Below, in pieces: positions 4,119 to 60,089 of a stretch of 64,000 nucleotides of DNA. The translations under genes and the position numbers were made by a program. This stretch comes from Acidilobaceae archaeon (GTDB taxonomy: Archaea; Thermoproteota; Thermoprotei_A; Sulfolobales; Acidilobaceae). The first letter of the stretch is position 1, and the number at the start of each line of letters is the position of its first letter. Location of the stretch: positions 736,001 to 800,000 of the forward strand of contig JAWAWX010000001.1 in the NCBI GenBank assembly GCA_038897215.1, in the 5' to 3' direction. Under the pieces are notes generated by a model. It searched no databases, was not told the DNA's origin, and saw only the letters and a program-made list of their open reading frames with translations.

Positions 4119-4228
4119 CCCGCCGTAGCTCAGCGGTAGAGCGCCCGGCTGTAGTGAGACGGGCGTGTAGAGCCCGGTGTCTCACAGACACCGGGTGGTC
4201 GGGGGTTCGAATCCCCCCGGCGGGACCA
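4119..4228 (+). tRNA. tRNA-Tyr(GTA) with 35-nt canonical 37/38 intron (4155-4189), CCA encoded
   Basis: Acceptor stem CCCGCCG/CGGCGGG, anticodon GTA at 4151-4153, bulge-helix-bulge CTGT/ACAG, TTCGAAT loop. Confidence 0.95.
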
Positions 4229-5843: not shown

Positions 5844-6853
5844 GAGCTAGCACCAAACACCTTCAGCTTATCTTTCTTCAAGCCCAGCGTGATAGTCTCA
5901 CCTAGAGAGATCCTATTCCTGTAGAACTCAGCCTTAGTAGTCACTGCTTTCACTAGAACTCCATCTACCCTCACGTCTATCCGAACGAGCGGTCCCTGGA
6001 ATAAGAGGTCGTCCACGACTCCGGAAAGCTTTATGTCGACTTCTTCAAGAGGATTGATCAAGATGTCTTCTGGTCTCACTCCTACAGACTCAGAGCCATC
6101 TACTCCTAGAAGTCTACCAGGTAGTATGTTTAAGTCACCGAAGAATGACGCTACTCTAAGGTCTGAGGGGTACTCGTAGACTTCTGAGGGGCTTCCATAC
6201 TGTACTATCTCGCCATCCATCATCACTGCTATGAGATCGCTGACGAGCATCGCCTCTGTCTGGTCGTGAGTCACGTATATTGTTGTGACTCCTAGCCTTC
6301 TCTGAAGTCTCCTAAGCTCCTCGAGGAGTCTCTGTTTTATCTTGTAGTCTAGGTGAGATAGAGGCTCGTCTAGAAGCAATACTCGAGGCTCTAGGACTAG
6401 AGCTCTGGCTAGAGCAACTCTCTGTTGTTGCCCCCCGCTCAGCTGATTCACTCTTCTCGAAGCGAATACTCGAGGCTCTAAGCCTACGAGCTCCATGACC
6501 TCGAATACTCTCCTCCTCACATACTCCTCTCTTTCCCCCCTAACCCTCAAGCCGAAGGCTATGTTCTCAAAGACATTCATGTGAGGAAATAGTGCTAGGT
6601 CCTGGAAGACCATCCCTATGTTTCTCTCCTCTGGAGGGGTTTCAGTATAGTCTTCTCCGTCAAAGTACACTTTACCTCTCTTCACTTCAACGAGACCTGC
6701 TATCACTCTCAGCAACGTAGTCTTACCGCATCCGCTAGGACCTATTACTGAGACTATGGAGCCTCTCGGTATCTCTATTGAGACTCCACGTAGAGCATAG
6801 TAGTCTCCGTAGGCTACCCACACCTTCTCTAAGTCTACGCGAGCACCGCCCAC
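5840..6853 (-). CDS. potA: Polyamine ABC transporter ATPase (PotA-like)
   Basis: GPSGCGKTT, LSGGQQQRVALAR, LLLDEP, TOBE-like tail. Confidence 0.9.
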   Translation of the reverse strand: MGGARVDLEKVWVAYGDYYALRGVSIEIPRGSIVSVIGPSGCGKTTLLRVIAGLVEVKRGKVYFDGEDYTETPPEERNIGMVFQDLALFPHMNVFENIAFGLRVRGEREEYVRRRVFEVMELVGLEPRVFASRRVNQLSGGQQQRVALARALVLEPRVLLLDEPLSHLDYKIKQRLLEELRRLQRRLGVTTIYVTHDQTEAMLVSDLIAVMMDGEIVQYGSPSEVYEYPSDLRVASFFGDLNILPGRLLGVDGSESVGVRPEDILINPLEEVDIKLSGVVDDLLFQGPLVRIDVRVDGVLVKAVTTKAEFYRNRISLGETITLGLKKDKLKVFGASS

Positions 6854-8091
6854 CTCATCTTCTCCCCTATGAGTTCTAACTCTGACTGCTTACGCCTCCT
6901 TAGTAGCACGATTATGGATGCTATCGCTACTAAAGCTAACACTGCTATTGCGAGATAGAGTCCTAGAGGTCTCCCAGCCTGGACCTCCATCATTACTCTA
7001 GTCACTGCTTCGAGCTTGCTCTCGTCTAGATAGGGGCTCATGATGAACTCGTATCCCTCTAGGTAGAGGAGTCCAGAGTCTATTAAGGAGAGAAGCTCGC
7101 TGTCTCCGACTTTAACAGCATAGCTTCTCAAGACCTCTCTATCTATTGGTGGCGGGTAGTAGGTGTACTTAGCGTTCCTGGCAGCTATGTCTGGTCTCAG
7201 GAGGAAGTTGATGAATAGATGAGCTTCCCCGACGTTTCTAGCATCTCTAGGTATGACCATGAAGTCTATCCATATATACAGGCCGTCCTCTGGTACTATG
7301 AAGTCCACTCTATCGCTCTCTGACATCATGAAGAGAACGTCGCCCGTCCAGGCTTGAGCTAGGCAGATCTCTCCAGCTATAAGCTTCTGCGTGATGTCGG
7401 TGACTCCCCAGAACCCTCTGAGATAGCCACGTATCTTCTTCAAGTGATCTATTACTTTGTCTATGACCTCTTTAGACCACGAGGCCTCATCGTTTATATC
7501 ATAGCCCAAGGCTATCATTGTGGCTTCGACTACATCTGTCCCCTCCGATAGGAGAACAACTCTGCCAGAGTACCTCTTGAGGTAATCGGGGCTCAAGAAC
7601 TCTCTCCAGCTTCTGGGAGGGTCTCTAACACAGTCCTTATTGTAAGCTATCACAGTAGCGCCCCAGCTATATGGGATAGAGTAGTCCATGTTCGGGTCGG
7701 CCGGGTATCCTCTCAGTCTCGGGTCTAGGTAAGCTAGATTCGGTATCTGATTCTTGTCGATCCTCTGTAGGAGACCTCTATCGATCGCTAGCTTTAGGTG
7801 AGTGTGTGCTAGCACGATTAGATCGTAGCCTCCTCCTCCGGCAATCAGCTTAGCCCACGCTTCTTCAGCGCTCTCGAACTCATCGTAGACAACCCGTATC
7901 CCGGTCTCTCTCTGGAAGATCTCCAGCACCTCGGGGTCTATGTACTGGCTGTAGTTGTAGACTCTTAGAACCCTTTCCTGAGCCGGAGCCGTGACAGTGA
8001 CATTCAGAACTAGGATGGCGAGGAGAAGCACGGGTACCAGATTCCTGAGCACTCCACCCCCAGCCCTCCGCGGCCGGTATCGCTCCCACAA
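6835..8091 (-). CDS. potD: Polyamine ABC substrate-binding protein (PotD/PotF-like) with C-terminal TM anchor
   Basis: LRVYNYSQYIDP, GGGGYDL, PYSWG, QAWTGD; signal peptide and C-terminal hydrophobic helix. Confidence 0.85.
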   Translation of the reverse strand: MWERYRPRRAGGGVLRNLVPVLLLAILVLNVTVTAPAQERVLRVYNYSQYIDPEVLEIFQRETGIRVVYDEFESAEEAWAKLIAGGGGYDLIVLAHTHLKLAIDRGLLQRIDKNQIPNLAYLDPRLRGYPADPNMDYSIPYSWGATVIAYNKDCVRDPPRSWREFLSPDYLKRYSGRVVLLSEGTDVVEATMIALGYDINDEASWSKEVIDKVIDHLKKIRGYLRGFWGVTDITQKLIAGEICLAQAWTGDVLFMMSESDRVDFIVPEDGLYIWIDFMVIPRDARNVGEAHLFINFLLRPDIAARNAKYTYYPPPIDREVLRSYAVKVGDSELLSLIDSGLLYLEGYEFIMSPYLDESKLEAVTRVMMEVQAGRPLGLYLAIAVLALVAIASIIVLLRRRKQSELELIGEKMRWAVLA

Positions 8092-8133
8092 CGTTGAGAC
8101 CTATAATAGGTTTCGAGATATACCTAGACACAA

Positions 8134-8447
8134 GGCCGCGGCCAGCGGCCGACGGGCTCTAAGCCCGAGGACACACCGCTCTCACCGCGCTCCCGGACCC
8201 CGCAAGGGGTGCGGGTGATACCCGCGGCTACGGCACAGAAACGAGACGGCCTCCGGCTATGTCGATGAAGCCGCGAGACCCTCTCGGCAACGAGAGGGTA
8301 GTAACCGGTGGAGGAAGCCGGGGGATGCGTTGAAACGGCCGACCCCGGGTGAGCAAGGCGGGGGGCTGTGAGGAGCGCGCGAGCCCTCCGAGAGACCGCT
8401 GAGTCGAATGCCGCTGGAGGTACTGAAAGCGGGTTATGGCCGCGGCC
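8134..8447 (+). ncRNA. rnpB: RNase P RNA (archaeal type A) with variant CR-I
   Basis: P1 GGCCGCGGCCA/TGGCCGCGGCC, P2, P3, P4 CCGCT/AGCGG, CR-II GGCACAGAAAC, CR-III TTGAAACGG, CR-IV GAGTCGAATG, CR-V ACTGAA..GGTTA. Confidence 0.93.
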
Positions 8448-8499: not shown

Positions 8500-8862
8500 A
8501 TGGTTGAGAGAGTGCCTCCGGAGGTTGAGGCTAAGTACACTAAGTACGTCAAGCTAAGAGACACCTTGGCTGCCGTGACCCAAGAGAGGACGGCTCTAGA
8601 AGCAGCTCTCTCCGAGCTCGACGAGGTGCTCGGCAGAGTCTCCGGGCTGCCTGATGACGCAGAGCTGTATAAGATAGTCGGGCACGTGATGGTGAGAGCC
8701 TCTAAGAGCAGTCTGCTCGATGAGCTGAAAAGCAGGAAGGAGGAGCTAGAGATAAAGCTGAAAGCAGTTAAGACTCAAGAGGAGTATCTGAGGAGAGAGG
8801 TCGATAGGCTAGCTGGAGAGCTGAGGGCGTTACTGAGTGGAAGAGCGGCGACCGGAGGGTAG
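8500..8862 (+). CDS. pfdB: Prefoldin beta subunit
   Basis: Coiled coil - LYKIVGHVMV hairpin - coiled coil; ATG at 8500 preferred because the longer ORF overlaps rnpB. Confidence 0.9.
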   Translation: MVERVPPEVEAKYTKYVKLRDTLAAVTQERTALEAALSELDEVLGRVSGLPDDAELYKIVGHVMVRASKSSLLDELKSRKEELEIKLKAVKTQEEYLRREVDRLAGELRALLSGRAATGG

Positions 8863-9145
8863 GAGTAGCAGCGAGGAGATTCTAGTAAACGCTCTTCTCG
8901 AAGCGGAGAAAGAGGCTAGACGCTTTCTAGAAGAAGCTCTAGGCAAGAGGTCAAGTAACGCCTACCTGGTCCTCAGGCTGGAGAAAAGGGGGGAGAGGAA
9001 GATATTAGTAGCGGAAGCTCGAGCAGAGTGGATCGCAGCTTCCAGAGAGGACTTGGAGAGAGTGGTTGACGAAGCTCTAGACAGAGCGTTCAGAGTATTC
9101 GAGGAGAAGACGGGGCTGAAGCCTCTTTGGCGAGAGCGAAGATGA
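8837..9145 (+). CDS. Conserved hypothetical protein (DUF3194-like)
   Basis: Size, helix-strands-helix pattern (VVDEALDRAF) and synteny with prefoldin beta/Pcc1. Confidence 0.5.
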   Translation: MEERRPEGRSSSEEILVNALLEAEKEARRFLEEALGKRSSNAYLVLRLEKRGERKILVAEARAEWIAASREDLERVVDEALDRAFRVFEEKTGLKPLWRERR

Positions 9146-9435
9146 AGCTCTGTCTAGGAGAGTACACTAGACCCGTGTATGAGAGCCTCCTAGCTGAGGC
9201 TTCACAACCAGCTCCCCCCAAGGCTAGAGTCTCGGTTGGCTTCGAGGAAGACTGCGTCTCTCTCCTAGTCGAGGCTGAGAGCTTGAGCAGACTTAGAGCA
9301 GTCCTGAACTCCTACGCTTACCTAGCTTACGCCATGTACTCAGCCCTAGCTGAGCTCAGGGGCTCTCGAGAAACTCAGATAGGTCTTGAGCCCTCTTCTC
9401 GCGCCTCTCGTAGGGAGTCTTCAGGAGAGCTTTGA
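9142..9435 (+). CDS. pcc1: KEOPS complex subunit Pcc1
   Basis: VYESLLAE and VEAESLSRLRAVLNSY; ATGA overlap with the upstream gene. Confidence 0.8.
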   Translation: MKLCLGEYTRPVYESLLAEASQPAPPKARVSVGFEEDCVSLLVEAESLSRLRAVLNSYAYLAYAMYSALAELRGSRETQIGLEPSSRASRRESSGEL

Positions 9436-38320: not shown

Positions 38321-38405
38321 GCGGGGGTGCCCGAGCCAGGTCGAAGGGGGCGGGCTCAAGACCCGTTGGCGTAGGCCGGCGTGGGTTCAAATCCCACCCC
38401 CCGCA
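38321..38405 (+). tRNA. tRNA-Leu(CAA)
   Basis: GCGGGGG/CCCCCGC acceptor, CTCAAGA loop, long variable arm. Confidence 0.95.
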
Positions 38406-50317: not shown

Positions 50318-50396
50318 GGGCCCGTAGCTCAGCCAGGACTAGAGCGCCGGCCTTCTAAGCCGGAGGTCCCGGGTTCAAATCCCGGCGGGCCCGCCA
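50318..50396 (+). tRNA. tRNA-Arg(TCT), CCA encoded
   Basis: GGGCCCG/CGGGCCC acceptor, CTTCTAA loop, TATA-like TTTTTAAA upstream. Confidence 0.95.
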
Positions 50397-59987: not shown

Positions 59988-60089
59988 TGGTGGGCCCGGA
60001 GGGATTCGAACCCCCGACCTACGGGTCTGGAGCCCCGGCCTCGAACTCGGCGTCGAGTCCGCCGCTCTGCCTGGCTGAGCTACGGGCCC
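59988..60089 (-). tRNA. tRNA-Trp(CCA) with 25-nt non-canonical 30/31 intron (60034-60058), CCA encoded
   Basis: Cloverleaf restored on removing the intron; hBHBh' with CGGC/GCCG central helix. Confidence 0.92.

Follow-up and report, generated by a model that had tools for sequence, protein, structure and literature searches.

The window, by which we mean the whole stretch of 64,000 nucleotides analysed here, contains an RNase P RNA gene whose product is probably (at a rough probability of 85%) a functional, lineage-specific active-site variant that supplies the organism's sole RNase P with its catalytic RNA. By its score, fold, conserved regions and partners, the RNA belongs, as far as its sequence can tell, to the archaeal type A family, and it departs from the family only at nucleotides that are held to be universal. 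According to published descriptions, the uridine bulged from helix P4 is universal, and in the RNase P of bacteria, archaea and eukaryotes its O4 directly coordinates the catalytic metal; that it is universal elsewhere rests on the literature and the Rfam consensus, our own survey covering one phylum.

A covariance-model search with RF00373 (RNaseP_arch; gathering score, 84) identified the 314-nt gene with a score of 154.1 bits (E 1e-43; Table 1). The alignment covers the whole model (1-288) without truncation and contains the helices P1-P5, P7-P12 and P15/16, including the P4 pseudoknot. CR-I to CR-V all align to the model consensus in the canonical order, with substitutions in CR-I and CR-V. 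An earlier note on this DNA had described an RNase P RNA with intact architecture, which is borne out by the RF00373 score and the presence of CR-II to CR-V. The second rnpB gene for which it had suggested a search was not detected: the locus gave the sole RF00373 match in the source genome, which was searched as a single contig of 1,159,524 bp (54% G+C; marker-gene completeness, 89.7%) and in which the window spans 736001-800000. The neighbouring genes encode an ABC solute-binding protein (6835-8091, minus strand, divergent) and prefoldin beta (8500-8862, plus strand). A TATA-like box starts about 31-32 nt before the predicted 5′ end of the RNA and is likely to be the promoter element of its gene.

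Table 1. Features of the RNase P RNA locus (positions are those of the window; CM, covariance model).
Feature	Position	Strand	Basis or remark
TATA-like box TATAATAG	8103..8110	+	read from sequence; 7/8 in simple TATA scan
RNase P RNA gene, archaeal type A	8134..8447	+	RF00373, 154.1 bits
P1 5′ strand, partner 8438-8447	8134..8143	+	CM alignment; all cells paired, 2 compensatory pairs
P2 5′ strand, partner 8410-8415	8144..8149	+	CM alignment; all cells paired
P3 hairpin	8153..8167	+	CM alignment and clade pair count
CR-I (J3/4 and P4 5′ strand), GAGGACACACCGCU	8167..8180	+	sequence and CM alignment
C at E. coli position 66, facing U360	8172	+	A in 164/179 relatives
Bulged A at E. coli position 69, replacing the metal-binding bulged U	8175	+	CM alignment; A also in 37/179
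CR-II ACAGAAACGA	8235..8244	+	fits conserved upper-case consensus of CM alignment
CR-III UGAAACGG	8331..8338	+	CM alignment
CR-IV AGUCGAAU	8402..8409	+	CM alignment
J2/4 part of CR-V, ACUGAA not ACAGAA	8422..8427	+	8424 (U) corresponds to E. coli position 349
P4 3′ strand AGCGGGUU	8428..8435	+	all cells paired; U74:A353 compensatory, in this genome only

CR-I reads GAGGACACACC, which in E. coli numbering corresponds to the changes of A66 to C, of the G68:C358 pair to C:G and of the bulged U69 to A. Read directly, the CR-I strand is GAGGACACACCGCT and the P4 3′ strand is AGCGGGTT. Their pairing yields A67:U359 and C68:G358, then the bulged A69, and then C70:G357, C71:G356, G72:C355, C73:G354 and U74:A353, while C66 lies opposite U360 (8435), such that the first P4 pair, A66:U360, is replaced by a C.U mismatch. 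Because A cannot pair with the G run, A69 is the bulge, and a bulged U is impossible in other registers. Thus, C and A occupy the positions of the 'universally conserved' A66 and bulged U69. The earlier note had read the core in the same way, with a C opposite U at 66, an A at 69 and no register for a bulged U; the P4 pairing agrees with it, and its E. coli numbering of the CR-I positions was correct. An extra departure that it did not contain lies in J2/4, where A349 is changed to U (ACUGAA vs ACAGAA).

We aligned the RNase P RNAs of the ten members of the window's clade (mean column identity, 86%) and evaluated the helices of the Rfam alignment, to which P4 was added as a pseudoknot (87 pairs, 867 cells). 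Standard pairs occupied 97.1% of the cells, and 33 of the 87 pairs showed changes on both sides. As controls, we shuffled the alignment, with 0 of 500 shuffles reaching either figure, and slid the partners by 1-3 columns, which left 35-51% of the cells paired and 1-7 pairs compensated. Every cell of the seven P4 pairs was paired, with two of them compensatory, and the C74:G353 to U:A exchange is specific to the source genome. The dense compensatory changes and the pairing beyond the levels of both controls argue that the RNA gene is not decaying; judged from these substitution patterns, the RNase P RNA of the variant clade is under selection. A clade structure generated by RNAalifold was dropped, as the P4 pseudoknot could not be drawn in it and it contained spurious GAGG/CCUC and CCGCC/GGCGG helices.

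The distribution of the variants was assessed in a comparison set of one genome per species, consisting of 29 relatives, the rest of the family, a class sample and a phylum sample. We collected 182 RNase P RNAs, all from the same phylum, 179 of which parsed cleanly and form the base of the counts. C68:G358 in place of G68:C358 proved to be the norm (A67-C68 in 145/179). The bulged nucleotide is U in 140 sequences, A in 37 and C in two. The A bulge occurs in 19 genera of seven families, all within one GTDB order, and is uniform inside each genus; on a maximum-likelihood tree of 113 class sequences, for which the three columns at issue were left out, the state of the bulge switches at least 10 times. 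Position 66 is A in 164 sequences, C in 12 and G in three. This rare non-A state (15/179) is limited to two separate clades, one comprising the window's genus and its sister genus (10 Acidilobaceae species, with C in seven and G in three) and the other comprising three genera in another order of the same class (five species with GAGGACGCUCC). As U360 is invariant (U in 179/179), C66 or G66 always faces U. These results show that A66 and U69, kept in only 164 and 140 of the 179 sequences, respectively, are not strictly defining in the phylum. The earlier note had asked whether the variant might already be common, which is the case for U69A (37/179) but not for A66C/G (15/179, two origins). In the papers covered by our literature search, to which older comparative studies did not belong, neither the A bulge nor the 66/349 pair was found described for crenarchaea.

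The carriers of the A bulge include the cultured type strains Caldisphaera lagunensis DSM 15908 (G017; CP003378) and Fervidicoccus fontis Kam940 (G028; CP003423) (PMC5797428). These organisms belong to the same order as the source organism, and their RNAs have the same C68:G358 pair and the same bulged A (GAGGAAACACC); unlike the source RNA, they keep A66 and A349. The second non-A66 clade (family f18, genera g64-g66) independently acquired C66 opposite U360, together with U349, but differs from the source RNA in keeping the bulged U, in having G350 changed to C and in its shorter length (about 285 nt). In three further RNAs, L177 (G264, family f38) and L178 and L179 (G274 and G267, family f39), P4 can form eight continuous Watson-Crick/wobble pairs with zero bulge (GAGGAAGCCCACC with GGUGGGCU; GUGGAACCCCCUCC with GAGGGGGU). 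The RF00373 scores of these bulgeless RNAs are 178 bits for the f38 RNA and 86-98 bits for the two f39 RNAs.

The change at position 66 is linked with that at position 349. U349 is present in all 15 of the non-A66 sequences and accompanies A66 in only five others among the 179. We also scanned all alignment columns, asking which positions differ in both variant clades although at least 85% of the other 164 sequences agree on them; exactly two emerged, 66 and 349, at which 100% and 96% of those 164 sequences, respectively, have A. These observations point to a functional coupling between the two positions. A phylogenetic sign test gave agreement in 2/2 pairs, two independent events with which significance is out of reach. 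In the A-bulge order, U349 occurs mostly on A-bulge backgrounds (14 sequences vs one). The bulge state is nevertheless no prerequisite for the 66/349 change, because the second clade combines U69 with C66 and U349. A mutual-information scan of all columns for a compensating partner of the A bulge identified none (best value, 0.21). A structural description of a 66-349 contact was not found in the open papers searched. The five f18 RNAs (L061, L066, L068, L077 and L114) have C350 as well as C66 and U349 (ACUCAA); the G350C mutation in E. coli is reported, as cited in PMC13022451, to cause a defect in Mg2+ recruitment.

The rarity of the variant, and nothing else, would suggest that 8167-8180 was misread in sequencing or misassembled, in which case the true bases would be GAGGAAACUCC. 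We regard such an error as extremely improbable, in view of the identical bases in nine other species-level genomes from different projects and the consistent linked change 250 nt away. Ten species share the core GAGGA[C/G]ACACC, their genomes stemming from no fewer than nine MAG projects. Scanning 185,579 species genomes for the CR-I motif of the clade returned nine archaeal records, all of them hot-spring MAGs from different projects (labelled as Acidilobaceae, Desulfurococcaceae, Sulfolobales, Thermoprotei or Thermoproteota archaeon), and ten bacterial matches, against about 17 estimated by chance. Since the CR-I variant is common to nine other independently assembled species genomes, it is not a product of chance or misassembly. 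An RNA that is kept structurally but is catalytically dead or repurposed, with the tRNA 5′ ends matured by HARP or another nuclease, could explain why two supposedly universal nucleotides near the catalytic metals have changed, and some other genera of the family do have HARP. A weakened or repurposed RNA whose job falls to HARP was also one of the two options proposed in the earlier note. However, a search with PF08745 (PIN_5) gave zero matches at E <= 0.001 in the source genome (one contig, 89.7% complete), while the positive controls, M. jannaschii, H. volcanii and M. acetivorans, were detected. The same search was negative in all 18 other genomes searched from the position-66 variant clades (congener, 0/1; sister genus, 0/8; second-clade family, 0/9), which speaks against that proposal. 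The genes for the cognate protein subunits for which we searched, as the earlier note had suggested, were all found in the source genome as open frames without stops scoring over the Pfam cut-offs: Rpp29 (922115-922360, 54 bits), Rpp21 (915902-916138, 57 bits), Pop5 (496389-496679, 61 bits) and Rpp30 (97137-97703, 50 bits). With these four genes intact and compensatory changes within P4 itself, we consider a dead or repurposed RNA very unlikely, and the substitutions are no evidence for a dead or replaced enzyme.

A milder alternative is a hypomorph: in hot-spring lineages with small genomes, drift would have fixed slightly deleterious changes, leaving an RNA that works markedly more slowly and without specific compensation. 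The genomes of the clade are indeed small (1.1-1.7 Mb), no covarying partner was found for the bulge, and mutants in which the bulged U was changed to A or C have lowered activity: the U52C mutation of T. maritima reduced kcat/KM about 13-fold, although its authors call the U 'not irreplaceable' (PMC3488217), and the U42A mutation or deletion of U42 in M. jannaschii 'greatly diminished' RNase P activity in vitro (PMC6565675). Against this stand the retention of the A bulge in 19 genera with at least 10 gains or reversions, the retention of non-A66, as either C or G, in ten species, and the two origins of non-A66, both joined by the identical change at 349. The repeated and retained A bulge and the twice-paired 66/349 change argue for compensation or neutrality rather than decay, and make the hypomorph, to our judgement, unlikely. 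The other suggestion of the earlier note, a naturally variant active site, is supported by the inheritance of the variant in ten species of two genera, the covariation in P4, the single rnpB gene and the intact protein genes.

HARP was found in 30 of the 67 genomes of the family, with none in genera g1 or g7 and 0/30 in the A-bulge genera. Within the family, all U-bulge genera have it but g8, which is represented by a single genome (64% complete), and none of the A-bulge genera does, a division that probably reflects one deep split. A general rule connecting HARP with the identity of the bulge was rejected, since the family of F. fontis has both an A bulge and HARP; the PF08745 search found the gene in F. 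fontis and not in C. lagunensis. The family-wide and class-wide searches show that many crenarchaea own both the RNP form of RNase P and HARP. Two genomes of genus g2 of the same family (G002 and G016; 90% and 84% complete) have neither an RF00373 nor a HARP match; their RNase P RNA may be divergent or unassembled.

The source RNA shares the helices, the P4 pseudoknot and the order of CR-I to CR-V with the type A RNAs of M. jannaschii and P. horikoshii, which function with Pop5, Rpp30, Rpp21, Rpp29 and L7Ae, and its genome carries the same four protein subunit genes (Pop5, Rpp30, Rpp21 and Rpp29). In contrast to those RNAs, it has C rather than A at position 66, an A rather than a U bulge, and ACUGAA rather than ACAGAA. 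The same P4-centred core is found in bacterial RNase P RNAs (E. coli M1 RNA; T. maritima, PDB 3Q1Q), which, unlike the source RNA, have A66, G68 and U69 and one unrelated protein. In the bacterial structures, the catalytic metal M1 has as its ligands the A67 and G68 phosphates and the O4 of the bulged U, and the second metal sits in the adjacent J3/4 region (PMC9433436, PMC3488217). The CR-IV strand binds Pop5 in the M. jannaschii structure (PMC6565675).

Under the reading that we prefer, a functional active-site variant, the RNA would assemble with Pop5, Rpp30, Rpp21 and Rpp29, and the holoenzyme would use the usual two-metal mechanism centred on P4 to trim the 5′ leaders of pre-tRNAs. The backbone phosphates of 67 and 68, perhaps with the N7 of the bulged A, and the protein cofactors would be enough to keep the catalytic metal in place, and the set of core substitutions (the A bulge, C.U in place of A66:U360, and U in place of A349 on the J2/4 strand, which runs beside P4) would have been tolerated or compensated by evolution. 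Most likely, the phosphate ligands, the five proteins and the high temperature make the base of the bulge nearly neutral in the order, and the J2/4 change would then have made A66 dispensable in the window's clade. The enzyme is presumed to be active, although the M. jannaschii U42A and T. maritima U52C data suggest that there may be some uncompensated loss of efficiency.

A bolder version of the active-variant reading, which we hold tentatively and at somewhat less than even odds, is that crenarchaeal RNase P has a remodelled pocket. The O4 of a bulged U and A66 would not be needed; positions 66 and 349 would form a coupled contact, hitherto unrecognised, beside the metal site, with the A349 to U change permitting the loss of A66; and both the A-bulge enzymes of the cultured species and the doubly changed ones of the window's clade would be fully active. 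If true, this would overturn the 'universal uridine' rule drawn from the bacterial, euryarchaeal and eukaryal enzymes. One archaeal order of hyperthermophiles, cultured type strains included, switches freely between U and A at the P4 bulge, and the window's clade additionally lacks the neighbouring invariant A66, with a linked change in J2/4. The variants represent natural experiments on the rebuilding of a ribozyme active site, for which cultured sources exist. They also call for caution, as A66 and U69 are unsafe as hard criteria for annotating RNase P RNAs or for calling them defective.

As for the substrates, ARAGORN predicted 48 tRNA genes in the source genome, some of the calls being dubious. 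A TATA-like box was recognisable upstream of 29 of them, mostly starting 33-38 nt or more upstream (median, -37). These boxes lie farther out than that of the RNase P RNA gene (-32), which suggests, as a rough estimate from sequence, that the organism has pre-tRNAs with short 5′ leaders that need to be removed. Genome-wide, about ten of the predicted tRNA genes bear introns, and there are a few dubious calls with introns of >800 nt. Four tRNA genes lie in the window, at 4119-4225, 38321-38405 and 50318-50393 (plus strand) and at 59991-60089 (minus strand); the first of these contains an intron of 38 nt. The prefoldin gene is followed by two overlapping 102-aa ORFs (8837-9435, plus strand), the first without a Pfam match and the second with a sub-threshold match to Pcc1 (KEOPS) of 20.2 bits against a cut-off of 20.9.
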